The translations under genes were made by a program, and so were the position numbers. The notes under the pieces are model-generated. The model was not told the DNA's origin, searched no databases, and saw only the letters and a program-made list of their open reading frames with translations. A stretch of 64,000 nt of DNA from Phycisphaerae bacterium (GTDB lineage: Bacteria; Planctomycetota; Phycisphaerae; UBA1845; DATKUK01): positions 143,199-207,198 of the forward strand of contig DATKUK010000102.1 in assembly GCA_035530655.1 (NCBI GenBank), given 5' to 3'. Shown here in pieces: positions 73 to 25,504 of this stretch (positions are counted from its first letter, which is position 1; each line of letters starts with the position of its first letter).

Positions 73-578
73 GGATCAGCGTGAGCCGCTTCGGGTCCGT
101 CGCAGAGCGAAGCGGCGCGGCCAACCCGAAGGCGCGCTCCACGCTCTTGTTCGGCTTTCGGTTGTGTCGAGTGGCCTCAGCTTAGTACTTGATGATGAAG
201 GTCACGGAGATGTTGTTCGACCTTGTCTCCTTGCCATGTCGACCGGTGGTCGGAAAGGCGTCGTCCTCGATGGCACGGCCTATCGCCTTGGGTCCGGGCT
301 TGACGTGTCTTACGAGGTTATCTCTGGATGTGCCTGGCTGGTTGCCGGCGGGGATATCGACGTCATGACCGTGACGAGTGAGGTGGTATTGGAACTGATC
401 ATCCTGGTAAGAGCCGAGCACGCGAGGCGGCGCGCCTTCCGGCAGGTGATCCTCCGAATCACGCTTGACAGCAAGGGGCGTCTCGCCTTGCTCCTGGCAG
501 GTCAATCGGGCGGTGGATACGCTGGTACAACACCGAGCGTCCGCACCAGGCTTTGGACTATCGCAGTCCGGACGAGCC

Positions 579-609
579 TCACGCTGCGTTGCGACGCAAC
601 GCAGCGTGA
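579..609. repeat. 31-nt perfect palindrome TCACGCTGCGTTGCG-A-CGCAACGCAGCGTGA
   Basis: Read directly from the sequence. It is self-complementary with 15-nt arms. It lies in the apparently non-coding stretch between the transposase fragment and the AT-rich gene. Confidence 0.6.
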
Positions 610-877
610 CAGAACAGAGTGTTGTCCAGCAACCAGGGGTACACTACACAAGCTTGCGACAACCCCAATGGCCTCTCAGCTCTGTCTGACAAACAGGTTC
701 TCCCCACGGTACGCCGTCCCGGGCACTGGCGGACAAACCGCCAGCGGCACCCGAGAAGACCAGACCGGAACTGCTAGGCACAGCCGAGGATTCCCATCTT
801 CTTCCTCTCCATCGAACGACAAAGCTCACCTGTCGCTATGAAACGCTCGCGGAATGCCGCTCAGCAGCAGTGATTTC

Positions 878-7118: not shown

Positions 7119-8156
7119 TTACGTTGCCCATCGTGAGAAGTCCACGTCGACAAACGGGACATCGTTCTCGAAACTGCTCTTCATCCAGGCGAATGTCCTG
7201 TCATGGCGGCCGACGCTTCCGAAGTCCTCCGTCGCACAAGGGGAAGTGGCGAGCATGGAGAGCTCTCTCGCTTTCAGGAAGAGAGGCAAGGACGCTGCCC
7301 ATCTTCGGTCCAACACGTGTTCCTGCCGGTAGCCTTCCATGAACGCATCGAGGAACTCTGCGGCACGCAGGGCCGAGTCGCGCGGCTGGCTGTCCGGGGT
7401 CTTCCATACCCAGAAGAAAAGCGCCGAGCCGATCTCTGACGCCAGCCCTGAGTAGTGGGCACATTCAAAGTCGATAACCACGGGACCGTCCGCCGACACG
7501 AGAACGTTGCCGCCGTGCAGGTCGTTATGTACGGGACCGTGGTCGACGGCAGGTAATTCCTCCAACGCCGCGCGCAGCTCGATGCACCTGGCGATCACGC
7601 GAGGCATCGACGGGTGTATGACGTCCGCCGGCGACTTGAACCAGGGCATGTCCGACCACATGCTCAGTTTGGCGCCGGCCGCGGCAGGCGAGTAGCCGAG
7701 GGAAACGCGATGCATCTTGCCGGCCAGCCGCCCGACAGGGCCAATGACCTCGCGGCTGTTGGGACACTCCTGCCACAGCCGACCCTCGATCCTTTCAAGG
7801 CAATAGGCGCTGACGTGCCATCCGTCCACGACCTGCGACTCGATCAGATTACCGTCGAGCGATCGGCATGGTTGCGGAACCGCGACGCCGCCGGCGTGGA
7901 GATGCGCCATCCAGTCAATCTCGCCGAGCAACAGCGGGTGGCGACTCTCGGCGGACGGAAGCACCTTGAATATGACCTCACCCGTCGGCGCCGGAGACCT
8001 GTAGACAAAGTTCCGGTGATCTTGTATCAGCGTAAGCGAGTTCATGGCCAAACCGAAACGTTCAGCCAGTTCTGGCAACGCACCGGTCAGAAGAATCTGT
8101 CTCGATCTATCGTCCATGGGGCGCAGCAATCTGGTGCTTTCCCATGCTTCTGTCAA
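7119..8156 (-). CDS. aminoglycoside phosphotransferase (APH)/choline-kinase-like small-molecule kinase
   Basis: The Brenner/catalytic motif is VHNDLHGGNVLV and the metal-binding motif is VIDFE. It is 345 aa. Confidence 0.8.
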   Translation of the reverse strand: MTEAWESTRLLRPMDDRSRQILLTGALPELAERFGLAMNSLTLIQDHRNFVYRSPAPTGEVIFKVLPSAESRHPLLLGEIDWMAHLHAGGVAVPQPCRSLDGNLIESQVVDGWHVSAYCLERIEGRLWQECPNSREVIGPVGRLAGKMHRVSLGYSPAAAGAKLSMWSDMPWFKSPADVIHPSMPRVIARCIELRAALEELPAVDHGPVHNDLHGGNVLVSADGPVVIDFECAHYSGLASEIGSALFFWVWKTPDSQPRDSALRAAEFLDAFMEGYRQEHVLDRRWAASLPLFLKARELSMLATSPCATEDFGSVGRHDRTFAWMKSSFENDVPFVDVDFSRWAT

Positions 8157-8579
8157 GAACCGCGAACATCGGCCAGTGGAAGCTCAGGAAACCGCTCCAC
8201 TGGGTTGCCGATGCTGTCTCTCCTGGCCCGCGATCGAAGACCCCCTTGAGAAACGACGCGAGCCTCGCGCCTGTTGCGCAAACGAGTTAATCCTGCAATT
8301 GTGCGGGGCCAACCTCGCCGCAGAGGTCGGACGCTTCGGCAAATGCTTCCAGGTTGACGGCGGACAGCAACAGGATGCCGACAATTGACTTCCGGGTCAG
8401 AAACCAATGGACCACCTCGTGGACCGGGGTGAAGGCCAGAACCTACGGATCCGGACCGCCAAGCACGCGGACAAACGCTTGCCGAACCGCTAGCCTGCCG
8501 GACAATAGAACGATGATAGCTCGCGACGGTCGCGGGTAGGAGTTGTCTGGGAAACCCCGGCTAAAGGATAAGCAGGACT

Positions 8580-10655
8580 ATGACGGATAGCACACCAATG
8601 GTTCTGGCTGCGACGCCGGGCGAGGCGACGCAGTTCTGTCACCGTGATGGCAAGTTCTGGATCGCGCGCCTGTGCGGAATGATTACAGGGAAACAGGGCG
8701 AAGATGCCGGCCCGGCGCGCACGCAGGGCGTGGCTCTGGTCAATGCCGATGGCCGGCGTTGCGAGGGCAGCGATCTGGTGCTGGAAGGCGTGGAGGAATC
8801 GGACGGCACTGTGGTGTGCCGCTGGCGAGTCGGGGATACGCCTCTACGCCTTGCTGTGCGTTGGCAAGAGTGCCCAGACACCGGGGTCGTCAGCCGACGC
8901 GACACGCTGACGAATACGGGCGCCGCAGAGGTGGCTGTGACACGCTGCTTGGCGCGGGTGAGCTTTCCTCCCGGCCGCTACGAGTGCTACACCCAGGCGA
9001 GTCGCTGGGCCAAAGAGAACCAGGGCGCCTGGCAGCCGCTGCACGCCGGCATTGCCCTGCGACATGCATGGGGTCGTACGACCGAGGAGAGCACGCCTTA
9101 CCTGGCCATGCGCGCCATCGGCGCGCACCAGGGCGTGGTGTTCCATGTTCTGCCTTGCGGCAACTGGACGATCCGGGTGAGCCCAGTCACGGCGGGGGGT
9201 GAACTGCCGTATGCCGTGGTGGAACTGGGTCTGGCCGACGAGAACCTGCATCGGGTGCTGCAACCCGGAGAGGCGCTCGATCTGCCGGAGACCCTTTTCC
9301 AGCCCCTGCCGCAGGGCGAGCCGCATCTCGCCGCGCCGGCACTGCATCGCTATCTTCTCGCGCACCATCTCAACGGCGCCAAGGCCCAGGCGCCGGTGGT
9401 GTACAACACCTGGTTCGACCAGTTCGACACCCTGGACGTGCTCCGTTTACGTACGCAACTCGCAGTGGCGAAAGCGCTCGGGTGTGAGGTGTTTGTGATT
9501 GATGCCGGTTGGTACGGCGCGGGCGGCCCGAACTGGTCGGCGCAGGTTGGCGACTGGCGGGAGAAGACCGAGGCCGCCTTCCGCGGGAAGATGCATGGCT
9601 TTGCCGAGGAGGTCCGCGCGGCCGGATTGGGCTTTGGCCTGTGGATGGAGCCGGAGCGATTCGGCCCTGACGCCCCGATCCGCAACGAGCATCCCGAGTG
9701 GTTCGTTCCGGTGGGCGACATGGCGCGGATAGACCTTACCCAGCCGAAGGCCTACGCCTATCTGCGTAGCGAGATCGGGCGGCTGGTGGAAAACTATGGG
9801 CTTGCGTGGATGAAGATTGACTTCAACTTCAGTCTCGACGCCGACGCCTCGGGCACCGAACTTGCAGACTACACGGCAACGTGGTACCGCCTGCTCGACG
9901 AGATACGCGAGGCCTACCCCCAGACGTTCTTCGAAGGCTGCTCGAGCGGCGCCATGCGCGGTGACCTGGCCATGCTCTGCCATGTGGACGGCCACTTCCT
10001 CAGCGATACGGTCAACCCAACAGACATGCTGCGGATTTCACAGGGCGCCTGGCTGCGCCTGCCGCCCGGCAGGCTCGCGCGCTGGACCGTGTTACGTTCG
10101 GCGGGCAAGGACCTGCTGCCACAACGGAAGGGGGTTGCCGCGCCGGAGGCGATCTTGAGCCCCGGCTGGACAGGCTGGGAGTTGGCGGAAGTGGTTGACC
10201 TGGATTTTGCCCTGTTGGCCGCCATGCCCGGCATGATGGGCTTAAGCGGCGATCTGGCTGGTCTCGGGGAGGCGTCGCGAACGCGGATCGCCGAAGGCAT
10301 CGCCTTCTTCAAACATTGGCGGCGCTTCATCGCGGGTGCTGTTGCCCACTTGCTGACCCCGCCGGAACCGCTCACATCTCGCGAAGGGTGGATCGGCGTG
10401 CAACTGCAAACTCCCGGCGACGACACCAGCTTGGTGTTTCTCTATCGCCTGGGCAGCGCCGGCGCACCGCCGCAGCTGCGGCTGTATGCACTTCAGCCGG
10501 AGGCCACATATGCCGTCACGCGCGGTTTTGACGCCCGAGCGACAGGCGCGCCGTTGCGGGGGCAGGCGTTGATGACTGAGGGCCTTCCTGTCGCTGGCTT
10601 GATCGGCGGCCTTGGGTGTCCAGCAGAGATCTTCGTGGTGCGCAGGACTGTTTGA
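8580..10655 (+). CDS. alpha-galactosidase, glycoside hydrolase family 36
   Basis: The GH36 signatures are FVIDAGW, GFGLWMEPE, WMKIDFN (the nucleophile region, cf. YxKWDMN) and EGCSSGAMRGD (the acid/base region, cf. CxSGGGRxD). It is 691 aa. Confidence 0.8.
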   Translation: MTDSTPMVLAATPGEATQFCHRDGKFWIARLCGMITGKQGEDAGPARTQGVALVNADGRRCEGSDLVLEGVEESDGTVVCRWRVGDTPLRLAVRWQECPDTGVVSRRDTLTNTGAAEVAVTRCLARVSFPPGRYECYTQASRWAKENQGAWQPLHAGIALRHAWGRTTEESTPYLAMRAIGAHQGVVFHVLPCGNWTIRVSPVTAGGELPYAVVELGLADENLHRVLQPGEALDLPETLFQPLPQGEPHLAAPALHRYLLAHHLNGAKAQAPVVYNTWFDQFDTLDVLRLRTQLAVAKALGCEVFVIDAGWYGAGGPNWSAQVGDWREKTEAAFRGKMHGFAEEVRAAGLGFGLWMEPERFGPDAPIRNEHPEWFVPVGDMARIDLTQPKAYAYLRSEIGRLVENYGLAWMKIDFNFSLDADASGTELADYTATWYRLLDEIREAYPQTFFEGCSSGAMRGDLAMLCHVDGHFLSDTVNPTDMLRISQGAWLRLPPGRLARWTVLRSAGKDLLPQRKGVAAPEAILSPGWTGWELAEVVDLDFALLAAMPGMMGLSGDLAGLGEASRTRIAEGIAFFKHWRRFIAGAVAHLLTPPEPLTSREGWIGVQLQTPGDDTSLVFLYRLGSAGAPPQLRLYALQPEATYAVTRGFDARATGAPLRGQALMTEGLPVAGLIGGLGCPAEIFVVRRTV

Positions 10656-11355: not shown

Positions 11356-12653
<1,298 letters not shown>

Positions 12654-13124
12654 TCACCGCCGATGGGCCCTGTGGCAGTTATCGGCCCATCGACTCAAAT
12701 GCCTCAAATGTCTGACAGCCAAGGGTTTGTCACGCAATACGCAAGATTCGCCACTATAAGGCGGGGGTTGGCGGCGTCAAGAAGACGCGCTGCCGCCGGG
12801 CCAGGTGCCACGTGCTGAGGCGGCGCGGCGGTGTCTGATAATGTCGGCCAGCGGAGGTCGTAGCGCCCAACCCCTCGGCTACGAAGGGACTTAGGCGCTT
12901 TCGGCTCTTGGTCGCCAGTGGAGCGGCGGCTACAATTCGAGTAAAGAGGGGTACCGTTGCGGCAGCGACGGGATGTGCCCGGGGTGGTGTTGCGCGTGCA
13001 TTGGCTGGCTGGTGGTCTGACGCCAGCCCGAGCATGTGCGTCGCCGGGAGGCCCTGGAGGGGCAACGTGGTAATGTCCGACAAGTCCAATACCTTTAGGG
13101 AATTGGCGGAGCAAGGGCATAAAC

Positions 13125-16100
13125 ATGATTCGTAGTTTCATCGCAGGTGGCATGAGGTGGCGACTCGTTTTAACCGGCTTACTGGCATTGCCCGCCCTGA
13201 CATGCGTGCAGCCACCCGAGCGCCTCACACCGGAAACAGAGCCCTTCGATCTGAGGATTTCGGTGTCGCGGCCGGCCGAGGACGTTGTTTTCAGCGATGC
13301 CGAACCGGTCGAGATTCGCTGGTCGGACCTGGGCCCCTACGATCTGGACGGCGATGGCCGCCTGAACGACCCGCCCGATGGCTCGACAGTGATGATCCAG
13401 CTCGATCCAGACCCCAACGATCCTGACAGTGGCAATGAAATCGACGTGCTCGGCCCGTTCGATGCCGTGCCCGACGACGACCTGTACGAATTCGACGGGC
13501 TGGATGCCGACGGCGAGATCGTAGAGGCCGGCGTCTACTACGTGTTGGCGACCATGGATACGGGCGACGAGACCTTAACAGACGCGTCGCTGGGCACGAT
13601 CCGGGTGCCTCTGGCGTTCAGTGAGCCGGAGACCGACGTCGAGCTGAATATAGTGGACGACTCGACCACCATCGCCTGGACGGCCGACGACGGAGGCATT
13701 GCCGGCGGCACGGTCGACTTCGGGCTCGATCCGGACCCGGTCGATCACACCGACGAAGGCGAGGGCGAGGATGAAGATGAGAAGTACTTCCTCAAGGGCC
13801 AGCCGCTGACCGACGGCGATTTTACACTCAGCGGTGCGGTGATCGGCAGCGCGGGCATTGCAGATGGCACGTACTACCTGTTCGCCCGGATCGAACAGCC
13901 CGGATTCGACACGATGTACATCACCTCGCCGGTCCAGATCACGATCGGGGCGTTTGGCCCGCCCACGCTGGAATTCGTGGACCTGGACAATGATGTCGAG
14001 AAGATTGTGGGCGATATCGTCATTATTAAGTGGGAAGACGACGACGCTGACGACAACGCCAAGATCGATCTGTTCGTCGTTGATGACGTGACCGGGGACG
14101 AAGTGCAACTGCTTAACGATCGGCTTGAGGACGCCGACGGCTCTCAAGACAGGTACAACTGGAACACCACCGGGATGCGGCCGGCAGCGTATCGTGTGAA
14201 GGCGACCATCTCGGATGACACCTCCACGGTCGAGGTCGTGGCGGACGGGAAGATCATCCTGCGGTCGTGCACGGACTGCCCGCTCATCACCATCACGTCG
14301 CCGGCGGCGGACGTGGATGGCATGGTGATGAACAGAATTCGGATCCGTTGGCAGGACGACACCCCCGTGGCCGGTGCGAAGGTTGCGCTGTACTACGATG
14401 ATGATCCGAACCCCATGGAAGCGGCTGAAACGGGCGATCCCGAGGTGCGCATCACCCCGGTAGACGGGCTGCCGGGCAATCTGGACGGAACCGATGCCGA
14501 CAGCTTCGAATGGGTGCTGCGGCCGGACGATCTGGCCCAACCGGCCGTGCCGGGGGGGACCTATTGGATTTTCGGGTATATCGGTAAGGCGCAGGTACCT
14601 GTACCTCCAAGCATCAGCACTCACGGCTACTCCGTGGCGGCGGGTAAGGTGACGGTAGATGATTCCCCGCCGGAGTTGGAGTTCATTGGGCTGGCCGGCG
14701 ACGTCGACGCGATTGTCGGTGACACGATCATCATCGAATGGGAGGACCGGGATCCCGACGACAACGCCAAGATCGATCTGTTCGTCGTTGATGGCGTGAC
14801 CGGGGTCGAAGAGCAACTGCTCAACGACCGGCTAGAGGACGCCGACGGGCTACAGGACGAGTTCGATTGGGATACCACGGGCATGCGGCCTGCCGTGTAC
14901 CGTGTGAAGGCGATCATCTCGGATGACACCTCTACGGTTGAGGTCGTGGCCAACGGGAAGATCATCCTGCGGTCGTGTGCGGACTGCCCGCTCATCACCA
15001 TCACGTCTCCATCTGGGGATATAGACGCGACCGCGGTAGATAAGATCGAGATTACCTGGCAGGACGACACCCCCGCAGCTGGTGCGAAGGTCGCACTGTA
15101 CTACGATGATGATCCGAACCCCATGGAAGCGGCCGATCCCAACGAGACGCGTATTACTTTGGCGAGCGGGCTGCCGGGCAACCCGGACGGAACCGATTAC
15201 GATGACTTCGAGTGGGACTTGCGGCCGGAGGACCTGACCGAACCGGCGGTGCCGGCGGGTGAGTATTGGATCTTCGGCTACATCGGCAAGAGCGATGTGC
15301 CCGAGCCGCCGAGCACCGATATCGATGGTTACTCCGTCGCGGCGGGCAAGGTGACAGTGGGCAACACGCCGCCACAACTGGAGTTCACCACGCCAGGAGA
15401 CACGGACGAAACGCTCATCATCGATGATCCCAACGACCCAAACAGCACGGATCTGACGATCAAGTGGAACTCGCGCGATGCCGACGACCCGATTACGATC
15501 GAGTTGTTCATCGACCTCGACGGCAACCACGACAACGGCAACGAGCGGCCAATCAACACAGCCACGATCAATGCTGACGTCGGTCCGGAAAGCGACGAGG
15601 AAGAGTGGAACAATCCCTCGGATGGTGTTGTGGATGCTTCGGGCGCAGCCGTGCCGCCAGGTGAATACACGCTCTTCGCGCTGGTCGACGATGGCATCAA
15701 TGACCCAGTCGTTGTCGAAGCGGAAGGGAAGATTATCATCCAATCGGGTCCCGGCAGCCAGCCGCAGATTACCATGGTCGAGCCGTTGGTGGACGTATCG
15801 CCCACGGTCGGCAGCCCGATCCTCCTTTCGTGGCAGGATGACAACACCGTAGCCGGCACGAAGATCCAGCTACGCTACGATGACGATCCGATCCCCGATC
15901 AGGGCACGGAGACGGGGGACAACGAGGTCAACATCGACGCGCTTCGCGACGCCAATCCGGACGGCTCGGCGGATCAGTTCTCGTGGTCGTGGCATCCGGA
16001 CCCGAGCGTTAATCCAGCCAACATCCTCCTGCCAGCCGTGCCGGAGGGCGAGTATTACGTCTTTGGGTACATCGGCGGCGCCGACCCGGTGAACAGTCCG

Positions 16101-18359
16101 TCGTCGATCGACGTGGCAGCCGGCCGCATCCTCGTGCCCAACACCTCGCCGGAGCTGGTCTTCACCACGCCGCCCTCCGGTCAGAATCTCAACGTGCCGC
16201 TCGGGGCGGGCGCGGTCTTCGGGTTCAACTTCCGTGACGCTGAGGACGACGTTCGTGTCAAATTGTTCCTCGACCCCGATACCAACCACAGCAACGGCAA
16301 CGAGGTCCGCATCGACAAGGGCAACACCACGCTGGACTTCGACCCCAATGATCCGCGAGGACATGCCTACACGCAGAATTGGGACGGGACCAACTTCAGC
16401 GGACAGACCGTCGAAACCGGCACGTACTTCCTGTACGCAAAGCTGAACGACGATACGAACCCGGAGGTGACCGTCGAGGCTGGGGCGAGCCGGAAAGTAA
16501 ACGTGATCGGCGTGACGGCACTAGCCAGCGGAACCGGTGCTGACGTGGCCAACACCGGAGGTTCCGGTCCGTTTACCTTGATCGACGGTGGCGCTGACTT
16601 CGTGGGCGCTGGGGTCACCGAAGGAGACCGCGTCAAGATTACGGGCGGGACGGGTGCGAACGTAGGCGTCTATAGCGTGACGGCGATTGCGGCGAACATG
16701 CTGACGCTGGACGAGGATGCAGGCGACTCCGGCGGCGCGGGTAACGTCGTTTACCAGGTATTCGAGAAGGACCCGCCCACGGCAGCTGTCATCGTGATGG
16801 CCACGCCGGCCAGCAATCAGCAGGTCAGCGAGGGTGACGACGTGTCGATTACCTGGGCCGACCTGACGGCGACGGGGAGTGAGACCATTACGCTGGTCTA
16901 CTCGACCAGCAGCACGGCCGACGCCGGCGCCGAGGTCGGCGCCGCCGAAACGCTGATCCGCTCGGGCATCCAGGCGGCGTTGGACGGCGTGAATGACCAA
17001 GCCACCTGGGACACCAGCGGCATGGCGGCCGGCACTTACTACATCCACGGCAAGATTCTCGCGGGCGCGACCGTCAAGGATACGTCCACGGCCAAGGGCA
17101 GCGTTGAGATTACCGGTGCGGCTATCACCCCGTCACTGGCGTTCAGCGAACCGGCCATTGAGAAGGATGTTGTCGTGGGCGGTCCAGGTGTCGGCGACAA
17201 CGATCCGCCGTTGGGTATCATTTGGCAGTACGAGAGCGGTGCCACCGGCAACATAAGCCTGTTCATCGACCGGGACACCATCAACACCAACGGCACCGAA
17301 CGCCTGATTCTAAGCAATCGTAAGCAACCAGCAGCCCCAGCGGGCGCTACCGATAGCTTTCCGCCGGCAGGAGTGTGGAAACTCACCGACCTAGACGGAG
17401 TCGACGTGCCGACGGGCAAATACTTCATGCGCGGCGTGCTGAATGTCAGCGGCTCGAGCCCTGTATACGCGACGGCGCCGGGACGGGTCAATATCCGCAA
17501 GACGGTCGACTCGCCATTGATACTGCTGACTGCACCCGCTGCGGATATCAGTATAACGACCGCCCAGTCGCGCCAGGTCGCGATCAACTGGAATGCGGAC
17601 GACCCGGGAGGCAACGCCGAAGTACATCTCTGGTACAGCACGACCGCCAATGCAGACAACGATACGCCTCGGATCCTAGAAACTGCAACAGGTGGACCTA
17701 TCACCCGCCTGGGTGATGTCAAGAATGCTTCGGGTTTTGAGTTGGTTGATCGACGAGCTACGTTTGAAGGTATTGTGGATCCCAACGATCAGGTCAGAGT
17801 GGTCAGCGGCACGGGAGCAGTGGTCGGGACGTATACGGTTACGGAAGTCGAACGCACGGTGCTCACTCTGGATGCAGATCCCGGTGACTCGGGCGACAGC
17901 GGCGACGTAGCCTACGTAGTTGCGGATGAAGTTCTCGCGACCGGTTCAAGTGCGGACGTAAGCAACGCAGCGGGCCTCGGACCGTTCACGTTAACAGATC
18001 CTGCTGCTGCCTTTGCCGGTGTTGTGGATCCCAACGATCAGGTCAGAGTCGTCGGCGGCACAGGAACGGTGGTCGGCACGTACACCGTTACTCTTGTGGC
18101 AGATCAAGAACTAACCTTGAGTGCCAATGCGGGTGATTCTGGTCTTGCAGGCGATGTGGTCTACGTCGTCGGGCATGAAGTGCTTGCCAGTAGCGGGCGC
18201 GTTGCAGCGTCGGAAGGGACGTTCACATGGTTTATCAATCCCGGCGATCTGGCTGTGGGCACCTACTACATCCACGCGGTGATCGGCAGCGGTGCTCGAT
18301 ACATCAACGATGAGGACCGTGATACGACCCTTGGACAGCTCACGGTGAGAGCCCCATAG
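13125..18359 (+). CDS. giant repetitive secreted or surface lipoprotein (1744 aa) with acidic calcium-binding-like DxDxDG motifs and tandem beta-rich modules
   Basis: The N-terminus has a signal peptide with a lipobox-like LALPALTC. The composition is highly D/E/G/T-rich. It has about four 240-aa modules and three about 80-aa modules (DPNDQVRVVGGTG...). Confidence 0.85.
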   Translation: MIRSFIAGGMRWRLVLTGLLALPALTCVQPPERLTPETEPFDLRISVSRPAEDVVFSDAEPVEIRWSDLGPYDLDGDGRLNDPPDGSTVMIQLDPDPNDPDSGNEIDVLGPFDAVPDDDLYEFDGLDADGEIVEAGVYYVLATMDTGDETLTDASLGTIRVPLAFSEPETDVELNIVDDSTTIAWTADDGGIAGGTVDFGLDPDPVDHTDEGEGEDEDEKYFLKGQPLTDGDFTLSGAVIGSAGIADGTYYLFARIEQPGFDTMYITSPVQITIGAFGPPTLEFVDLDNDVEKIVGDIVIIKWEDDDADDNAKIDLFVVDDVTGDEVQLLNDRLEDADGSQDRYNWNTTGMRPAAYRVKATISDDTSTVEVVADGKIILRSCTDCPLITITSPAADVDGMVMNRIRIRWQDDTPVAGAKVALYYDDDPNPMEAAETGDPEVRITPVDGLPGNLDGTDADSFEWVLRPDDLAQPAVPGGTYWIFGYIGKAQVPVPPSISTHGYSVAAGKVTVDDSPPELEFIGLAGDVDAIVGDTIIIEWEDRDPDDNAKIDLFVVDGVTGVEEQLLNDRLEDADGLQDEFDWDTTGMRPAVYRVKAIISDDTSTVEVVANGKIILRSCADCPLITITSPSGDIDATAVDKIEITWQDDTPAAGAKVALYYDDDPNPMEAADPNETRITLASGLPGNPDGTDYDDFEWDLRPEDLTEPAVPAGEYWIFGYIGKSDVPEPPSTDIDGYSVAAGKVTVGNTPPQLEFTTPGDTDETLIIDDPNDPNSTDLTIKWNSRDADDPITIELFIDLDGNHDNGNERPINTATINADVGPESDEEEWNNPSDGVVDASGAAVPPGEYTLFALVDDGINDPVVVEAEGKIIIQSGPGSQPQITMVEPLVDVSPTVGSPILLSWQDDNTVAGTKIQLRYDDDPIPDQGTETGDNEVNIDALRDANPDGSADQFSWSWHPDPSVNPANILLPAVPEGEYYVFGYIGGADPVNSPSSIDVAAGRILVPNTSPELVFTTPPSGQNLNVPLGAGAVFGFNFRDAEDDVRVKLFLDPDTNHSNGNEVRIDKGNTTLDFDPNDPRGHAYTQNWDGTNFSGQTVETGTYFLYAKLNDDTNPEVTVEAGASRKVNVIGVTALASGTGADVANTGGSGPFTLIDGGADFVGAGVTEGDRVKITGGTGANVGVYSVTAIAANMLTLDEDAGDSGGAGNVVYQVFEKDPPTAAVIVMATPASNQQVSEGDDVSITWADLTATGSETITLVYSTSSTADAGAEVGAAETLIRSGIQAALDGVNDQATWDTSGMAAGTYYIHGKILAGATVKDTSTAKGSVEITGAAITPSLAFSEPAIEKDVVVGGPGVGDNDPPLGIIWQYESGATGNISLFIDRDTINTNGTERLILSNRKQPAAPAGATDSFPPAGVWKLTDLDGVDVPTGKYFMRGVLNVSGSSPVYATAPGRVNIRKTVDSPLILLTAPAADISITTAQSRQVAINWNADDPGGNAEVHLWYSTTANADNDTPRILETATGGPITRLGDVKNASGFELVDRRATFEGIVDPNDQVRVVSGTGAVVGTYTVTEVERTVLTLDADPGDSGDSGDVAYVVADEVLATGSSADVSNAAGLGPFTLTDPAAAFAGVVDPNDQVRVVGGTGTVVGTYTVTLVADQELTLSANAGDSGLAGDVVYVVGHEVLASSGRVAASEGTFTWFINPGDLAVGTYYIHAVIGSGARYINDEDRDTTLGQLTVRAP
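13960..15370 (+). repeat. near-identical tandem duplication (two modules, each about 237 aa or 710 bp) inside the giant lipoprotein gene
   Basis: Long DNA stretches recur with few changes. For example, gacaacgccaagatcgatctgttcgtcgttgatg appears at about 14056 and about 14766, and the KIILRSC[TA]DCPLITITSP block recurs. Confidence 0.7.
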
Positions 18360-18542
18360 ACGTCCGGTGTGACTATCCGTGCGCGGTATGCACGACTATC
18401 CAGGGCGGGCCCCCCGGCTCGCCCTGTTGTTTGCGCGGCAGCCGGACGGGTTGACGAGCATCCCCATGACGCGATAATGGGGCGTCGGGTTCGAGCCGGC
18501 CAATGGGGTCGAGCAGTCGGCCCGTTTTTGCCTGCGATCGCC

Positions 18543-20030
18543 ATGCCTAACTTCCTTCACCGTCGTACCCAACGCAAACAAGTACCGGTTACCGAGAAGG
18601 TAATCGGCGCGATGCTCCTGATCTTGCTGGGGGCGATTCTCGCAGCCATCTTCGTCACCGTTGCCCGCGACAGAAGCGAGCTTTTCGCCGCGCCGATCGA
18701 GCAGGCGGGGCGGCCAGATGAGTCTGAGACCCAACTGCTCGCGGGTCGACTGCTGCCCGCCTCTGCCGCCGACGAGCAATGGAAGCTCGACCCGAATTCG
18801 GTCACATCGCAGGAAGGCTCCGAAGCGGCACTGGTGTTGGGTGCTGTCTACCACACGCTCGCACCCACCCAAAGCTCGGCAAACGTCCGGATTCATCGCT
18901 TCGCGGATGCGGCTGCGGCGCGGCAGACGTTCCTGAACTATAAGCCCTTCGACGTGGAGACGGCCGAGTCGATCCTGCTTGGCCTGACCGGTCAGACTAC
19001 ACTCGGGATGGAGGATTATCTTCTCGACGACAAGGTGCGGTTCTGGAGCGGCCGTCACTACACCGAGATTCAGTACGAGGGCGCGTCGGCAGACGATCGA
19101 GCCAAAGCCGTCGCGCTGGCCGCCGCGCTGGCCGAGCGGCAATTGGCCTACGGACCGCCGGCGCCCAGTCGCAAGGCCGACCAACCCTCAGCCGAGCAGG
19201 GCCAGCAAGAAGCAGCGCTTGGAGCGGGCGTTCTCCCACCGCCGGAAGACGCCGACTGGAAAGGGCCTGAAGCCGTGCGCGTATTCGGGCCCGCCAATCT
19301 CTACGAGAAGATCAACGGCAGGGCGGGGCTCTACTTTTCATTCGGGTTCGTCAAGCTGACTTTCGGCACGTACCGCCACGCGAAGCAGGGCGAGCAATAC
19401 GTCGACTGTTACGTCTATGACATGGGCGAGTTGGAGAATGCCTTCGGCATGTTCAAGGTCGAGCAGGGGGGCGACACCGAGCCAGTCCAGATCGGCCGCG
19501 AGGGCTATGTGGCCGAAGACAGCATCTTTTTCTGGAAGGGTCCCTGCTACGTACAACTGCTCGTGCCGCAGTCGGGCCAGGCCTACAGCCGGTTCGTGCC
19601 GGCGCTGGCCGAGGCGGCGGCTGAGTTGATCGAAGACGACGGGCGCAAGCTGTGGGCCGACGCGGTGCTGCCCCAGCAGGACCGCATTGATCGCTCGTTC
19701 GCCTATGTGCGGGCCGATGCGTTCAGCCTGGACTTCCTCAAGAACGTGTACACCGCCGAGTACCAGGCGGGCGAAACGACCTGGACGCTCTTCGTTCACC
19801 GTGCGCCCGACGACCGGCAGCCTCGCGACCTGCTGAGCAAGTACGGCGAGTACCTGGCCAAGTACGGAAAGGTCGAGTCCCGATCCGAAGACTATCTGGT
19901 GGGGCATGTGAGCGGATACTACGACGCCGTCTTTGCCGACGGGCGATACTTCGCCGGGCTGAACGGCTGTGCCGATCGCGGCGTCGCCGAATCGCGTGCC
20001 CGTGCCCTGCGCGAGGCGCTCCAGGAATAG
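18543..20030 (+). CDS. membrane-anchored hypothetical protein (N-terminal TM helix, large extracytoplasmic domain)
   Basis: The start chosen is the in-frame ATG giving MPNFLHRRTQRK followed by the TM helix IGAMLLILLGAILAAIFV. It is co-directional and tightly spaced between the giant lipoprotein and the DUF362 gene. Confidence 0.6.
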   Translation: MPNFLHRRTQRKQVPVTEKVIGAMLLILLGAILAAIFVTVARDRSELFAAPIEQAGRPDESETQLLAGRLLPASAADEQWKLDPNSVTSQEGSEAALVLGAVYHTLAPTQSSANVRIHRFADAAAARQTFLNYKPFDVETAESILLGLTGQTTLGMEDYLLDDKVRFWSGRHYTEIQYEGASADDRAKAVALAAALAERQLAYGPPAPSRKADQPSAEQGQQEAALGAGVLPPPEDADWKGPEAVRVFGPANLYEKINGRAGLYFSFGFVKLTFGTYRHAKQGEQYVDCYVYDMGELENAFGMFKVEQGGDTEPVQIGREGYVAEDSIFFWKGPCYVQLLVPQSGQAYSRFVPALAEAAAELIEDDGRKLWADAVLPQQDRIDRSFAYVRADAFSLDFLKNVYTAEYQAGETTWTLFVHRAPDDRQPRDLLSKYGEYLAKYGKVESRSEDYLVGHVSGYYDAVFADGRYFAGLNGCADRGVAESRARALREALQE

Positions 20031-20034
20031 CCGT

Positions 20035-21102
20035 ATGACCGAAGATCACGACGACCGCAATGATCATCCCACCCGGCGGGAGTTCCTCCGGCGGGGGGGC
20101 AGCGCGGTAGCGGTGGCTGCCGGAGCGACGGCGGCCGGCCTGCTGCTGTATGACCCGACGGGCAAGCGCGGGCTGGGGCGGCCCGCGCCACTGAAGCTGA
20201 AGAACTACTTCGCGTCGATCGACTACGGCGCGTCCGAGCCGCACCTCTCGGTGGCCCGCGGGCGCGATGTGGCGCGCATGGTGTCGGCCGCGCTCGAACC
20301 GATGGGCGGCATGAAACGCTTCGTCAAAGTCGGTGACGTGGTGCTGCTCAAGCCGAACGTCGCGTTTGACCGCGCCCCGACGATGGGCGCCACGACCAGC
20401 CCGGCATTGGTGGCCGAGGTGGCCCGTCTTTGTCGCCAGGCCGGGGCCAAGAAGGTGATCGTCGCCGACAACCCGATCGAGTCGCCGGAGGGCTGCTTCG
20501 CCAAGACGGGGATCGGCCAGGCCGCTCGCGAGGCGGGAGCGGTGGTCATGCTGCCATCGGCGAGCCATTTCCGCGAGGTGGCGGTCCGCGACACACCGCC
20601 CGACGCAGGCCGCGGCGAGATCCTGGGCTCGTGGTCGATTCTCTGGCCGCCGCTGGCCGAGGCCGACAAGGTGATCGGCCTGCCCACCGTCAAGGACCAC
20701 AACCTTTGCTACGCGTCGCTGGGCATGAAAGGGTGGTACGGATTGCTGGGCGGGCGGCGCAATCAGTTTCACCAGGCCATCCACGAAATCATCAGCGACC
20801 TGGGCTACATGATCAGCCCGACGCTTATGATTGCCGACGGCACGCGTGTGCTTATGCGCAACGGGCCGACCGGCGGGCGCCTGCAAGACGTGAAGGCGGG
20901 CAACACAATCGTCGCCGCCGTGGATCAGGTGGCTTGCGACGCCTGGTGCTACGAGAATCTGCTCGGGCGCGATCCGGCCAAACTTGCGTATCTGGAGATG
21001 GCGTGGGAGAAGTTCGGGCGCGGTCAGCTTCCGCATCGGCTGGGGCAGCGCGACTGGCAGGACTACAAGCGACGCGGTCTCGTCGCCGAGGTAAACGTAT
21101 AA
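20035..21102 (+). CDS. DUF362-domain protein with a twin-arginine (TAT) signal, probably a periplasmic Fe-S protein
   Basis: The TAT motif is RREFLRRGGSAVAVAAGA. The DUF362-like core is VKDHNLCYASLGMKGWYGLL. The start ATG lies 5 nt after the upstream stop. Confidence 0.75.
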   Translation: MTEDHDDRNDHPTRREFLRRGGSAVAVAAGATAAGLLLYDPTGKRGLGRPAPLKLKNYFASIDYGASEPHLSVARGRDVARMVSAALEPMGGMKRFVKVGDVVLLKPNVAFDRAPTMGATTSPALVAEVARLCRQAGAKKVIVADNPIESPEGCFAKTGIGQAAREAGAVVMLPSASHFREVAVRDTPPDAGRGEILGSWSILWPPLAEADKVIGLPTVKDHNLCYASLGMKGWYGLLGGRRNQFHQAIHEIISDLGYMISPTLMIADGTRVLMRNGPTGGRLQDVKAGNTIVAAVDQVACDAWCYENLLGRDPAKLAYLEMAWEKFGRGQLPHRLGQRDWQDYKRRGLVAEVNV

Positions 21103-21164
21103 GTTGCTTCATGCAGACGCCCGACGACAGGGCAGGCGGCTTCCGAATCGGCAAGAGGTAGGCA

Positions 21165-23018
21165 GTGAGGATCACCACCGTAAGGATTATCTGCCAGAGC
21201 GTGTTGTTCTGTGTGTTTCTTGCGCTCTCGCTGCTGACCACGTTCGCCTATCTCGACAGCCTGCCGGGCCTGAAGCTGTGGCTGAGCAAGTTCCTCGAGA
21301 TCGATCCGCTCATCGCCATTTCGACCGCCATCACCACCCACACGGTCTACAAGGGTCTGTTGTGGTCGCTGGTGCTGCTGGTCCCGACGCTGTTCCTCGG
21401 GCGGTTCTTCTGCGACTGGATGTGCCCATACGGATCGCTGCATCACTTCGTGGGTTGGGCGTTCAACCGGCGCAACACCAAACATCGCATAGAGTCGAAC
21501 CGACATCGCCCGCTGTACCGCTTTAAGTACTACTTGCTGGTGGCTTTGCTGGCGGCAGCCGTGCTGGGCAGCCTGCAAATCGGCCTGCTCGACCCGCTCT
21601 GCCTGCTGCATCGTTCGGTGGCGGTGTCGGTCGCGCCGACGTGGGATATGGCCGTCACCGCCATCGAACGAGGGCTCGACGTCAACCTGTCGACTTGGCG
21701 GTTCCGCCTCGATCCCGGCGTGTACCAGCTCGGGTGGGTCATCGGCGCGATCCTGTTCGTGCTGGTAGCTCTGAACGTGGTCATCCCGCGTTTCTTCTGC
21801 CGCTCGTTGTGTCCGCTCGGGGCCACGCTCGGGTTTTTCAGCCGGTTCTCGCTGTGGCGCATCGACCGCGACCCGGACCGTTGCACTCATTGCGATCTCT
21901 GCCTGCGAAGCTGCGAGGCGGCCTGCGACCCCCAGGCCGATCTGCGCAAAGCGGAATGCTTTGTTTGCTTCAACTGCGTCGAGGAATGCCCGCACGATGC
22001 GCTGCGCTTTGCGTTTGTCCCTGCGGGCCGACGAGAGATAAGCGGTACCGATGTGGCCGGTCGGCGGGCGGTCTTCGCGGCGGTTGCGGGCTTCCTCTTC
22101 TATCCGTTCGCCCGCGCCAGTGCCCGCACGAAGCGCGACTTCTCGAGCAAGGCTATCCGGCCGCCCGGTGCGGTCGAGGAGCAGGAGTTTCTCGAACGCT
22201 GCGTGAAGTGCGGCCAGTGCATGCGCGTCTGCCCGACCAATGTGCTGCAACCGGCGGTGTTCGAAGCCGGTGTGGAAGGGCTGTGGACCCCCGTGATGAA
22301 CTACCGCATCGGCTTCTGTCAGACCTCCTGCACGGCGTGTGGGCACGTGTGCCCGACCGGTGCCATTCAGCACCTATCGGTAGCCCAGAAGCTGGGCGCG
22401 GGACCTCACGAGCAGGCCGGGCCGGTCCGTCTGGGTACGGCGCATTTCGATCGCGGCCGCTGCCTGCCATGGAGCAAGAACATTCCCTGCGTGGTGTGCG
22501 AGGAAGTTTGCCCGACCAGCCCGAAGGCCATTTATTCCGAGCGGATGCAACTGGCTATTCGTGACGGGGCCAAGCAGGTCGTCGCAGCCGGCGACCGGGC
22601 GGTTACTCTGGCTGAACAGCCGCGGCCTGGTGAGTTTGTCGCCGAGTCGGCACGGTTCGAGTTCAACCAGTTCGCCGGCGACCAGACGACGCGCTACTTC
22701 GTTGAGATTCTCCACGCCGACGGCGTCCGCGAGGTCCACCCGATTGCGTCGAACGACATCGACACGCTGCTGATCGCCGATCGGTGGCATCAGACACCTG
22801 CGGCGGGCGAGACGGCGGTCATCATGATCGAATTCCGCGTACCCAAGGTGGACGTGTCTCGCTGCACCGGCTGCGGGCTGTGCGAACACGAGTGTCCGGT
22901 TGTCTCAGACCGCCGCGCTGTGTACGTGACGGCCGAGGGTGAAACGCGCTCGCAGCACTACCAGGAAGCCGGGCGCAATCGCTCGGTCCGCCTGCTCCAG
23001 TCAAGCGGGGCGTCGTGA
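21165..23018 (+). CDS. membrane-integral polyferredoxin (NapH/MauN-like, multiple 4Fe-4S clusters)
   Basis: The N-terminal TM region carries FFCDWMCPYGSL, the NapH-type motif. It is followed by at least six CxxCxxCxxxCP ferredoxin motifs, for example CVKCGQCMRVCP and CTGCGLCEHECP. Confidence 0.8.
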   Translation: MRITTVRIICQSVLFCVFLALSLLTTFAYLDSLPGLKLWLSKFLEIDPLIAISTAITTHTVYKGLLWSLVLLVPTLFLGRFFCDWMCPYGSLHHFVGWAFNRRNTKHRIESNRHRPLYRFKYYLLVALLAAAVLGSLQIGLLDPLCLLHRSVAVSVAPTWDMAVTAIERGLDVNLSTWRFRLDPGVYQLGWVIGAILFVLVALNVVIPRFFCRSLCPLGATLGFFSRFSLWRIDRDPDRCTHCDLCLRSCEAACDPQADLRKAECFVCFNCVEECPHDALRFAFVPAGRREISGTDVAGRRAVFAAVAGFLFYPFARASARTKRDFSSKAIRPPGAVEEQEFLERCVKCGQCMRVCPTNVLQPAVFEAGVEGLWTPVMNYRIGFCQTSCTACGHVCPTGAIQHLSVAQKLGAGPHEQAGPVRLGTAHFDRGRCLPWSKNIPCVVCEEVCPTSPKAIYSERMQLAIRDGAKQVVAAGDRAVTLAEQPRPGEFVAESARFEFNQFAGDQTTRYFVEILHADGVREVHPIASNDIDTLLIADRWHQTPAAGETAVIMIEFRVPKVDVSRCTGCGLCEHECPVVSDRRAVYVTAEGETRSQHYQEAGRNRSVRLLQSSGAS

Positions 23019-23136
23019 CGGAATATCGGCCGATTACAACGGTCGAACTTATACAGGTTGTAGCCGTCCATGCACGACGCGACGCCGCACTAACATTAGC
23101 ACGAGTATGACTATCGTAAATACTCGGTTGACTGAC

Positions 23137-24891
23137 TCAACATGGGGTAGGGCAGGGGGGTGACGCCGTCTGCGCCACGTAGATCCAACGCTCGGTGGCC
23201 GGGCCGAAGTTCTTCCCGTCGCACCTGGCACGAGCCTGCACCACGTATGGCCCGGGCAGCACGTCGGTGAACAGCGCCTTTCCGTCAGCCGTCCGTCGGA
23301 CAGCGATGCACCGGCTGCGGTCGCGCGTCAACAGACGGCACTCGAACGCCACCTTGTCGGCCTGCCCTTGCCCGACAAGCGTACACTGCACCTCGACACG
23401 ATCGCCCCCAGCCGGGATGCGTGTCGGGTGGGTGGGCGAGAACACCGCGGTAATGCACTGATCCGGGTTGTGGCGTAACTGGAGCGTCGTCGCGTGGGCG
23501 GAGCCGCGATGGAGCACCACGTCCGGCACGGTAATCTCTCCAGGGCGCTGCACCGTCAACACTCTGGGTGAGTCCCCGCCGATCGTGTACACCAACGTCG
23601 AGCCGGAAGGCAGAGGAAACTGATGCGGCTGGCGAATGGTCACGTGGTAGCGTGTCTGCTCGACGGGCGCCCGCCACGCAGCCGTCGGACCGTCGAGCAG
23701 GAACGGGCTCACCTCCAGCCGGTCGGGCTCGTCGATCAGCCCATCCCAACGGACGAAGGCGTTAAGCATCCCGCGCGGGCAGCTTCGCGGATCGCAGTCG
23801 GCTTGCCACAACCCGCCGGCGTCGATCCCGAACTGTCCCTGGCCGACGTGCTGAAAGATGATGGCTGGTCGGTCGAGCCTCACCTGACCGGTGGCGACCG
23901 GCACGAAAGGAGGATACCAACGCCCCAATGGATCGTCCTTGTGGTGGGTGCGCTGATCCCAGACAAACGTGCCCGCGGCCCGGCCGGCCAACAGCAGGTC
24001 GTACAGCCCCGGCTTGCCAGACTCGACGGAAAGGTACTGGGTAAACGGCACCGTGCGGTCCTTAAGGCCGTGCTCGATCTGGAGCCAACCCGGGTAGGGC
24101 GGCTCGGCCTGGAGCCATCGTGCCGCGTTCAGGTAGTCCCAGACGCCGATGTCGGTGCCTGCTACGCGGAGGTTCCACTGCCTCGGGCCGAACAGTCGCT
24201 CAGCCTCATCGATCATCTGGGGTGCGCCGGCAGGCGTGATCAGCGGCTCGATGGCGAGGCACCCGACTAAATGCTCCGAATGGGTCAGCGCCAGCAGCAG
24301 CGCGCCCGTGCCGCCCATCGAGGCCCCATGCACCCATACGCGCCGGGGGTCGGCTCGGAAGCGTTCCAGGACGAACCGCAACGTATAAAGCAGCCGTCGC
24401 TGCGTGTAGGGCACCACCTGCGTATCACGCTGAGGCTGGGCGGGAAAACGCTCGTGGTAGCCGAACCACGCCGTGTGCCCGGGTTGTCGCTCCCCAAGCC
24501 AATGGGTCTGCGCCAGTGCGTCGGTGTTGTCGTCGGGGATCACGACGATGTGATCGGGCCATCGGCGCTCCCGCCGATTGAAATCGCCCTGGCGCGCGTG
24601 CAGAACCGTGACCACCGGCGCCGGCTCTGTCATGCTTTCCGCCGTTGGCCGCAATAGCGGCAGGCGTACCAGGAAGTCGTAGCAGACCGCCCCAACGCCG
24701 GGCGCGCTCATGGATGAGTCCGTTTCGTGTCGGAAGTGGTAATACCAGTAACCCCAGTGGCTGAAGTGTTTCACCAACGTCGGCTCACGGGGTTCGGCCG
24801 CCTGGAGCGGAACCCAGGCTGCCGCGGTTAGAAACAGGCAACAGACGGTTCGCCACGTGCCGGCCGATACGATCCTTCCCAGCCGCTCCAT
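23137..24891 (-). CDS. secreted alpha/beta-hydrolase (esterase or S9-peptidase-like)
   Basis: The nucleophile elbow GxSxG is VHGASMGGTG. A signal peptide follows the Met at 24891 (MERLGRIV...AAWVPLQAAEP). The longest ORF extends to 24990. Confidence 0.7.
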   Translation of the reverse strand: MERLGRIVSAGTWRTVCCLFLTAAAWVPLQAAEPREPTLVKHFSHWGYWYYHFRHETDSSMSAPGVGAVCYDFLVRLPLLRPTAESMTEPAPVVTVLHARQGDFNRRERRWPDHIVVIPDDNTDALAQTHWLGERQPGHTAWFGYHERFPAQPQRDTQVVPYTQRRLLYTLRFVLERFRADPRRVWVHGASMGGTGALLLALTHSEHLVGCLAIEPLITPAGAPQMIDEAERLFGPRQWNLRVAGTDIGVWDYLNAARWLQAEPPYPGWLQIEHGLKDRTVPFTQYLSVESGKPGLYDLLLAGRAAGTFVWDQRTHHKDDPLGRWYPPFVPVATGQVRLDRPAIIFQHVGQGQFGIDAGGLWQADCDPRSCPRGMLNAFVRWDGLIDEPDRLEVSPFLLDGPTAAWRAPVEQTRYHVTIRQPHQFPLPSGSTLVYTIGGDSPRVLTVQRPGEITVPDVVLHRGSAHATTLQLRHNPDQCITAVFSPTHPTRIPAGGDRVEVQCTLVGQGQADKVAFECRLLTRDRSRCIAVRRTADGKALFTDVLPGPYVVQARARCDGKNFGPATERWIYVAQTASPPCPTPC

Positions 24892-24970
24892 CGGATCCGC
24901 GGTGGGCGCAGCCCTGCTTGCCTGCCCGGACACGGTCGCTATGCTAAAGGTGAGCGAACGGTCCGACGAC

Positions 24971-25504
24971 ATGCCGAAAGAGCCCTCCACTACGCAGGAT
25001 ACGTCCGTCGCGAGAGCTGAAGCCGCCTTTCGCGCCCATCTGCGGCGCCGAGGCCTGAAGTATACTCGCGAGCGACGGGCGATTCTCCAGGCCGTGATGC
25101 GAAACGAGCAACATTTTGAGGCCGAGGGGCTGCTACTAGCGATGCGCCAGCAGGCCGTCCGGGTGGGGAAGGCTACGATCTACCGCACGTTGCCGTTGCT
25201 GGTTGAGGCGGGGATTGTCCGAGAGGTGATCTACGGAGAGAAGCACGCCCACTACGAACACACGTTCGGGCACACGCCGCACGACCATATGGTCTGTCGT
25301 GACTGCGGTCAGGTGATCGAGTTCGATAGCAAAGAGGTGCTCGAGCTGATAGGGCAACTTTGCGGGCGACAGGGCTTCGAGCCGCTCTATCACCGCTTCC
25401 AGGTATCCGGCCGATGCGATAGATGCCAGCGCGTGGCCGCGCAGCGTCGCCGAGGCGCTAGCAGAGCGCGGCGTACGTCATCAGGGCCAGCACAGCGATC
25501 CTGA
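24971..25504 (+). CDS. fur: Fur-family metal-responsive transcriptional regulator
   Basis: The DNA-binding helix is ATIYRTL. The metal-site motifs are HAHYEH...HDHMVCRDCGQVIEF and CDRC. The alternative start is ATG 24941. Confidence 0.75.
   Translation: MPKEPSTTQDTSVARAEAAFRAHLRRRGLKYTRERRAILQAVMRNEQHFEAEGLLLAMRQQAVRVGKATIYRTLPLLVEAGIVREVIYGEKHAHYEHTFGHTPHDHMVCRDCGQVIEFDSKEVLELIGQLCGRQGFEPLYHRFQVSGRCDRCQRVAAQRRRGASRARRTSSGPAQRS

Follow-up and report, generated by a model that had tools for sequence, protein, structure and literature searches.

A DUF6599–DUF362–polyferredoxin gene set and the adjoining gene for a putative repeat lipoprotein in a Phycisphaerae bacterium

Polyferredoxins made of fused NapH-like and NapG-like parts have been shown experimentally to be inserted into the membrane by joint action of the general secretion (Sec) and twin-arginine translocation (Tat) pathways (Tooke 2017, PMC5449189). 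That study concerned membrane insertion, and described neither a function nor partner genes for these proteins; it cited MsrPQ as the split counterpart of dual-targeted proteins (PMC5449189). The LarA superfamily acts on 2-hydroxy acids (PMC11770544), and the family DUF362 appeared in the literature found only as a LarA outgroup and in DUF362-CBM9-dockerin fusions (PMC5742341). No literature was found on the family DUF6599 (PF20244), nor on a DUF6599-DUF362-polyferredoxin gene set. Genes for these three families, here named G2 (DUF6599), G3 (DUF362) and G4 (polyferredoxin), were identified next to one another in a 64-kb stretch of DNA of a Phycisphaerae bacterium (contig DATKUK010000102.1, positions 143,199 to 207,198; hereafter the window). 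They are preceded by G1, a gene for a very large repeat protein (Table 1).

The evidence presented below tilts towards two linked but separable units: a periplasm-facing electron-transfer module formed by G2-G4, and G1 as a clade-specific accessory lipoprotein. The window is chromosomal DNA with a G+C content of 63%. As noted in the initial annotation, made from the letters of the window, G1-G4 are four plus-strand open reading frames (ORFs) separated by gaps of 183 nucleotides (nt; G1-G2), 4 nt (G2-G3) and 62 nt (G3-G4). The Pfam search that the annotation recommended identified DUF6599, DUF362 and a NapH/NapG-like polyferredoxin, and gave G1 a marginal match of the immunoglobulin (Ig)-like kind.

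Table 1. Features of the G1-G4 locus (positions in the window; aa, amino acids)
Feature	Position	Strand	Remarks
G1, 1744 aa	13125-18359	+	ORF; Ig-like-repeat lipoprotein (candidate)
G1 signal peptide ending in candidate lipidated Cys27 (A-L-T-C)	13125-13205	+	Cys kept in orthologues
G1 N-terminal two-domain module, sole part common to 282-327-aa orthologues	13200-13970	+	Alignment, phmmer and profile matches
G1 super-repeat, copy 1 (aa 279-514)	13959-14666	+	Self-comparison
G1 super-repeat, copy 2 (aa 515-750)	14667-15374	+	77% nt identity to copy 1
G1 super-repeat, diverged copy 3 (aa ~770-1013)	15432-16163	+	~33-46% aa identity to copies 1 and 2
G1 ~80-aa 'GTGxxVGxYxV' module, 3 copies	16521-16769, 17715-17930, 17955-18191	+	No Pfam match
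Terminator-like hairpin (11 bp, 9 G-C) then TTGTTTGC	18401-18436	+	42 nt after G1 stop
Sigma-70-like promoter motif TTGACG-N16-GATAAT before G2	18451-18478	+	10/12 consensus positions; 25 nt beyond hairpin
G2, 495 aa	18543-20030	+	DUF6599, N-terminal membrane anchor and periplasmic alpha+beta domains
G3, 355 aa	20035-21102	+	Tat-exported DUF362, LarA-like fold
G4, 617 aa	21165-23018	+	NapH-NapG fusion polyferredoxin

Families and targeting signals of G2, G3 and G4

The N-terminal half of G4 matched NapH models and the C-terminal half NapG models, in all cases below the family cutoffs. Against NCBIfam, the scores were 86.8 bits for NapG (cutoff 269) and 71.5 bits for NapH (cutoff 234), both under the equivalog cutoffs; the NapH/MauN model TIGR02163 was matched with an E-value of 1.5e-21, the MauM/NapG model TIGR00397 with 2.1e-19, and NosR weakly. 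Pfam returned two Fer4_5 matches. Hydrophobic segments lie at about aa 1-35, 60-88, 119-149 and 182-218, and the Cx3CP motifs FFCDWMCP and FFCRSLCP correspond to C83-x3-C87-P and C212-x3-C216-P. The initial annotation had recognised the NapH-like part and at least six CxxCxxCxxxCP motifs. Six groups of four cysteines are indeed present, two cytoplasmic and four periplasmic, while the strict motif occurs three times. The periplasmic groups span aa 346-356, 385-396, 433-449 and 567-577 (NapG model, E 1.3e-24). In addition, an internal twin arginine (RR) precedes a fifth transmembrane segment (TM5), GRRAVFAAVAGFLFYPFARASARTKRD (aa 300-318, nt 22062-22118). In 34 of 35 G4 homologues, an R[RK] pair stands ahead of TM5, which is weakly hydrophobic and has positive charges after it; in G4 itself, TM5 falls below 1.5 on the Kyte-Doolittle scale and the other four transmembrane segments lie above it. 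G4 thus carries what appear to be the hallmarks of Sec/Tat dual targeting.

The same layout is found in Q1NSB0 of delta proteobacterium MLMS-1 (PMC5449189), namely a NapH-like part of four transmembrane segments with cytoplasmic clusters, an RR pair, TM5 and a NapG-like domain. The likeness to the Q1NSB0 family is one of architecture as described, and G4 differs from it in having two rather than three cytoplasmic cluster motifs and a Phycisphaerae-specific periplasmic insertion of ~100 aa. This non-conserved insertion occupies aa ~455-558 (window 22530-22840), between the third and fourth periplasmic four-cysteine motifs. Polyferredoxins of Phycisphaerae are 612-716 aa long, versus 500-548 aa in other phyla.

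G3 was assigned to DUF362 (PF04015; E 1.6e-41, 143 bits against a gathering threshold of 24), a large family, of which more than 3000 relatives were detected here at E ≤ 1e-20. It contains the motif TRREFLR (nt 20071-20091), of the S/T-R-R-x-F-L-K type typical of Tat substrates, together with a hydrophobic stretch, and the signal is conserved: RR was present in 42 of the 43 homologues, which come from many phyla. As G3 lacks a clear AxA cleavage site, it may stay anchored. The initial annotation had described G3 as a Tat-exported DUF362 iron-sulphur (Fe-S) protein. Family and export signal were borne out; the Fe-S assignment was not, since none of its five cysteines is invariant among the 43 homologues (C301 and C305 occur in about half of them), the invariant residues being Lys, His and Asp. 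G3 itself is therefore not considered to be an Fe-S protein.

DUF362 and DUF2088 belong to a single Pfam clan, CL0471, which links G3 to the LarA superfamily of nickel-pincer nucleotide racemases and epimerases, and G3 has a LarA-like fold. Neither its sequence nor a G3 profile gave a meaningful match to a solved structure among PDB chains. The invariant residues H222-x9-K232-x13-H246 (window 20698-20772) nearly match the spacing of H174-x9-K184-x15-H200 in LarA1, where His174 is catalytic, Lys184 tethers the cofactor and His200 is a nickel ligand; the likeness is one of spacing in sequence, and it hints at a nickel-pincer-type site in the Tat-exported G3. The lar biosynthesis genes (LarB/C/E) were not found in the 64-kb window.

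The membrane-anchored protein reported earlier for G2 could be identified as a member of DUF6599 (E 8.6e-55, 185.6 bits against a gathering threshold of 27, in two stretches). Its anchor, predicted with the N-terminus inside, lies at aa 20-41 (nt 18600-18665). The AlphaFold model of G2 (predicted local distance difference test, pLDDT, 78) consists of alpha+beta domains. As modelled, these domains are PknH-sensor/PsbP-like, that is, extracytoplasmic binding or scaffold folds and not enzymes. A comparison of the G2 sequence with PDB chains gave no meaningful matches.

The earlier suggestion that G3 and G4 are a periplasm-facing electron-transfer pair is supported. In the mechanism proposed here, Sec would insert the first four helices of G4, and Tat would export the fifth helix with the four-cluster C-terminal domain. 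The NapH-like part would connect the quinone pool to the periplasm, where G4 would exchange electrons with G3 in one direction or the other (from a dehydrogenase to quinone, or from quinol to a reductase). G2 would serve as the binding or organising subunit for Tat-exported oxidoreductases, presumably within a complex, and G1 would probably assist the module as an accessory, perhaps by binding a glycan or an envelope polymer.

Distribution of the module and its neighbours

A scan with a DUF6599 alignment, in which each species was represented by one genome, yielded 330 relatives, and 80 loci were read. Synteny was counted in the 60 loci with at least 4.5 kb of sequence downstream of DUF6599. 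DUF362 immediately followed DUF6599 in 35 of them, and in 29 of these 35 (29/60 overall) the order DUF6599-DUF362-polyferredoxin was complete; 16 of the 29 three-gene loci also had a Tat-signal aldo/keto reductase, making four genes. Such a reductase adjoined DUF6599 in 24 of the 25 loci lacking DUF362. With DUF362 or the reductase beside it at nearly all the loci, DUF6599 can be regarded as a fixed companion of Tat-exported oxidoreductases. The module was present in at least six phyla, with representatives in Planctomycetota, Gemmatimonadota, Latescibacterota, Armatimonadota, Syntrophorhabdales/'delta proteobacterium' and Verrucomicrobiota (Opitutales, Verrucomicrobiales). No G1-like gene accompanies it in the majority of Phycisphaerae or in at least five further phyla; the link between G1 and the redox genes is thus not a general property. 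G2-G3-G4 is regarded as an ancient, mobile unit.

The Tat-signal aldo/keto reductase, which has a Cys-rich C-terminal tail, was the commonest neighbour of DUF6599 (40 of 82 loci; examples are L040 13553-14725, plus strand; L012 15018-16358, plus strand; L052 10951-12180, minus strand; about 37 others have it too). DUF6599 of Isosphaeraceae has it as its sole partner, with neither DUF362 nor a polyferredoxin. An aldo/keto reductase is odd in the periplasm, a compartment without NAD(P)H, and the literature yielded nothing on aldo/keto reductases that Tat exports to the periplasm and that have Fe-S clusters.

The neighbours of the module in other phyla are often sugar-related, and code for gluconolactonase, an SKI-family kinase, glycosyltransferases, nucleotidyl transferases and a protein that has a 3-keto-disaccharide-hydrolase domain. 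Such flanking genes were read at L040 7236-9721, L037 5110-7899, L009 14646-16421 and L012 7570-9867, and include a glycogen-synthase-like glycosyltransferase and a Wzy_C protein. At L072 (Opitutales), a multihaem cytochrome c gene lies upstream of the module. Taken with the aldo/keto reductase partner, the DUF362-CBM9-dockerin fusions and the action of the LarA superfamily on 2-hydroxy acids, these neighbours suggest a substrate that would most likely be a sugar-derived hydroxy or carbonyl compound.

Instead of being a catabolic or respiratory enzyme, the module could serve to mature or repair proteins or cofactors of the periplasm, in the manner of MauM/MauN, NosR/NosGH, CcoG or MsrPQ, with G1 as its client or as a protected envelope protein. 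The matches of G4 to the NapH/MauN and MauM/NapG subfamily models, and weakly to NosR, would agree with this, as would the MsrPQ parallel drawn by Tooke et al. for dual-targeted proteins and the gene for a FUR-family regulator just downstream of the module in the window, L001, L002 and L005. The G4 scores, however, fall well short of the family cutoffs, the surroundings lack mau, nos, cco and msr genes, and the FUR linkage is limited to the closest relatives. Further, both the partner enzymes (LarA-fold DUF362, aldo/keto reductase) and the sugar-related genes nearby suggest that small molecules are acted on, and a maturation or repair function is considered very unlikely.

G1 and its link to the module

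The initial annotation had placed all four genes in one putative operon. The G1-G2 gap, however, contains a terminator-like hairpin followed by a promoter motif (Table 1). The hairpin has a folding energy of -23.4 kcal/mol (z = -4.2 versus shuffled sequence) and is conserved, with base changes, in L083 and L084; a similar one in L002 was noted by eye. The pattern TTGAC-N17-19-ATAAT has a single match in the 64-kb window, against 0.10 expected, and an equivalent motif is present in the G1-G2 gap of L001, L002, L005, L083, L084 and L087, that is, in all seven loci with a long G1 when the window is included. In these long-G1 loci, the gap measures 175-295 nt and contains TTGAC-N17-ATAAT, whereas in the clade with a short G1 the motif is missing and the gap, at five of six loci, spans 12-72 nt. 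A conserved order with neither terminator nor promoter between the genes, as expected of a single operon, was found for G2-G3-G4 and not for G1-G4. Because of the hairpin and the conserved promoter motif, G2-G4 would have a transcript of their own, and G1-G4 of the window are probably not one transcript. The ancestral short G1 gene would have been co-transcribed with G2, and where G1 expanded, G2-G4 would have kept or gained their own promoter.

The leader of G2 (18479-18542) contains a hairpin (18506-18523) followed by TTTTT directly before the ATG, conserved in L083 and L084. It was rejected as an attenuator, since its fold is no better than that of shuffled sequences (z = 0.1).

The start of G1 in the NCBI record is Met10 (13152); the recorded product is a hypothetical protein of a Phycisphaerae metagenome-assembled genome, 1735 aa long and 100% identical. 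The lipoprotein signal peptide reported for G1 is upheld in part. All 9 orthologue N-termini examined retain a Cys behind the hydrophobic stretch, and several orthologues have canonical boxes (L-A-G-C, L-V-G-C or L-L-G-C, under the criterion [LVI][ASTVI][GAS]C), while the A-L-T-C box of the window is non-canonical.

Self-comparison of G1, with repeats detected from overlapping fragments, confirmed that the protein is built of tandem modules. The 710-bp internal duplication described before is real, with a super-repeat unit of 236 aa (708 nt), although it is neither near-identical nor recent, copies 1 and 2 sharing 77% of their DNA and 66-80% of their protein sequence. Beyond the super-repeats, the body of G1 consists of more diverged modules and three ~80-aa units. 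The consensus of the latter is ...DGGADFxGxVxxGDxVxVxGGTGxxVGxYTVT...LTLDxDAGDSG..., and the copies are interspersed among Ig-like repeats. The Pfam match of G1 mentioned above was a marginal one to Kre9_KNH (26.9 bits against a cutoff of 24.6); those to FlgD-Ig and CHU_C were weak. A reading of the CHU_C match as a sorting signal of the type IX secretion system was rejected because the match is internal and below cutoff. The dockerin or EF-hand-like motifs of the initial annotation did not withstand inspection either: D-x-[DN]-x-D-G occurs as two isolated, unpaired copies (aa 73 and 942) in a protein of 12% Asp, and Pfam gave no dockerin or EF-hand family match in G1.

These results bear on the proposal, made together with that of a four-gene operon, of a giant adhesin-like surface lipoprotein served by the redox pair in the processing of an extracellular substrate or in surface electron transfer. 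G1-G4 do lie close together on one strand, a G1-type gene always adjoins DUF6599 in its clade, and the short gaps of the short-G1 clade are compatible with co-transcription there. Set against this are not only the hairpin and the conserved promoter motif between G1 and G2, but also the variable size of G1 (282-1744 aa among orthologues) and the wide occurrence of the module without it. Beyond the lipobox-like Cys, no outer-membrane or surface sorting signal was found in G1, DxDxDG is present only twice, and the locus contains no cytochromes, conduit or outer-membrane components. Nothing in the data supports a cell-surface location, the adhesin role or extracellular electron transfer, and the proposal as a whole appears highly improbable.

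Close homologues of G1 are few and vary in length (716, 1244, 1245, 1336, 1535, 1575 and 1744 aa). Its first ~260 residues are homologous to complete lipoprotein-like proteins of 282-327 aa, so that what is common is this N-terminal part and not the giant size; the latter apparently arose by lineage-specific tandem duplication around a conserved core formed by those residues. In an exhaustive search of 1.84 billion representative proteins, no more than 18 matched the N-terminal module at E ≤ 1e-3. With a profile, the module was detected at 8 of the 82 DUF6599 loci, all in Phycisphaerae and always directly upstream of DUF6599. A metagenome scan with a four-sequence alignment of the module gave two loci, one of them the L004 contig itself.

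Every full orthologue found of the G1 N-terminal module (about 13 loci, proteins of 282-1744 aa) lies directly upstream of DUF6599, with differing outer flanks; the arrangement was observed in the window, L001, L002, L005, L083, L084, L087/88, L003, L004, L007, L008, L021 and L086. At one locus with a full-length orthologue, the order continues with DUF6599, DUF362, polyferredoxin and aldo/keto reductase. Among the 1.84 billion representatives, and where contigs were readable, no full G1 orthologue was found away from DUF6599, and the window contains no G1 paralogue elsewhere. The domain-level relatives P0139 and P0152, with which G1 has the Ig-like domain alone in common, lie in unrelated contexts. 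A G1-type gene, whatever its size, is thus linked non-randomly to the redox genes. L003, L004 and L007, which belong to the clade without an adjacent polyferredoxin, have a second conserved lipoprotein-like gene (about 7400-8700, minus strand; ~357-449 aa, no Pfam match), placed upstream of their short G1-like gene and divergent from it.

In principle, the adjacency could be a historical accident, a repeat-lipoprotein gene having been inserted once upstream of the DUF6599 operon in the ancestor of a subclade, with no functional connection. A G1-like gene was counted at just 8 of 73 DUF6599 loci. Seven of these belong, by a tree of DUF6599, to two sister clades of Phycisphaerae; the eighth, L005, groups elsewhere, beside L012, which has no G1-like gene. 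The separate transcription signals, and the wider synteny shared among the closest relatives, would also fit an accident. However, the two genes have stayed adjacent down to ~40% identity in DUF6599 and 25-30% in the G1 N-terminal module despite changes in both outer flanks, full orthologues did not turn up in another context among the 1.84 billion representatives, and the short forms lie 12-72 nt from G2. An accident is accordingly rated as rather unlikely. The persistence of the adjacency at such low identity, with changing flanks, argues for a functional tie of G1 to the module, with common ancestry accounting for part of it, and G1 is probably a clade-specific accessory lipoprotein, neither a core nor a defining part of the module.

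Several observations weigh against the division into a G2-G4 module and an accessory G1 as set out here. The U-tract of the G1-G2 hairpin is weak (TTGTTTGC), so read-through from G1 is conceivable, and the G2 promoter call is a consensus match. Synteny among the window, L001 and L005 extends further (to enolase upstream and/or the FUR gene downstream), and therefore part of the G1 adjacency could be inherited gene order. The clade with the short G1-like gene has no adjacent polyferredoxin. The aldo/keto reductase partner is absent from the window according to tblastn. The quinol coupling of G4 is derived from a NapH similarity below the NCBIfam cutoffs (77 versus 213 bits), and the idea of a sugar substrate draws on gene neighbours from other phyla and on analogy at the family level.

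A more far-reaching version would see DUF6599, the Tat-exported DUF362 and the Sec/Tat polyferredoxin, with or without the aldo/keto reductase, as an undescribed and widespread periplasmic oxidoreductase complex. The LarA clan would then have, in the catalytic subunit, a first member outside the cytoplasm, possibly with a nickel-pincer-type hydride cofactor. An Fe-S chain would lead to the quinone pool, and in some Phycisphaerae an expandable Ig-repeat lipoprotein would have joined the complex to capture the substrate. Taken in full, this is distinctly unlikely.

Surroundings of the locus and comparison with known systems

Upstream (5′) of G1 lie genes for a GH36 glycosidase and an enolase. 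Downstream (3′) of G4, a convergent esterase-like gene (23137-24990, minus strand) is followed by the gene for the FUR-family regulator (24857-25504, plus strand) and by one for a class II aminoacyl-tRNA synthetase. Directly after G4, on the same strand, comes the FUR gene in L001 and L002; in L005 it lies nearby. Within the 62-nt G3-G4 gap, AGAGGT precedes the GTG start of G4. A search of Rfam with positions 12500-23300 gave no matches at E ≤ 1. The other genes of the window are housekeeping genes (pyrB, pyrC, ftsK, coaBC, gmk). Its first 2000 nt have a G+C fraction of 0.49, versus ~0.63 elsewhere in the window, and the ORFs there (164-841, plus strand; 878-2092, minus strand) have no Pfam match; this segment may be foreign DNA.

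As a candidate lipoprotein of tandem Ig-like beta-sandwich modules, G1 resembles the SusE/SusF-type lipoproteins of Bacteroidota, and its L001 orthologue has a faint precomputed SusE match. It differs from them in that the G1 of the window has no significant SusE match and no SusC/D genes are present. G3 stands apart from all characterised LarA proteins by its Tat export and by having an Fe-S electron-transfer protein as its partner.

NapGH, with its relatives MauMN and NosGH, offers the closest parallel for G4, whose halves match NapH and NapG; by analogy, G4 would couple quinol or quinone to a Tat-exported enzyme. In G4, however, the two halves are fused, and a DUF362 protein takes the place of NapAB as partner; genes of the nap, mau or nos kind were not found in the window. 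MsrPQ (YedYZ) follows the same logic, a membrane redox protein feeding a Tat-exported periplasmic enzyme, but its cofactors differ (heme b and a Mo-cofactor, as against the Fe-S clusters of G4), and there is no sequence relationship. DUF6599 has no known function, and that of the Sec/Tat polyferredoxins is undescribed. The comparison provides a testable hypothesis for all three families, in which a NapGH-like wire would serve a periplasmic enzyme of LarA fold or of the aldo/keto-reductase family. The giant G1 defines no new surface-redox system; the module would rather be a variation on the NapGH and MsrPQ systems.

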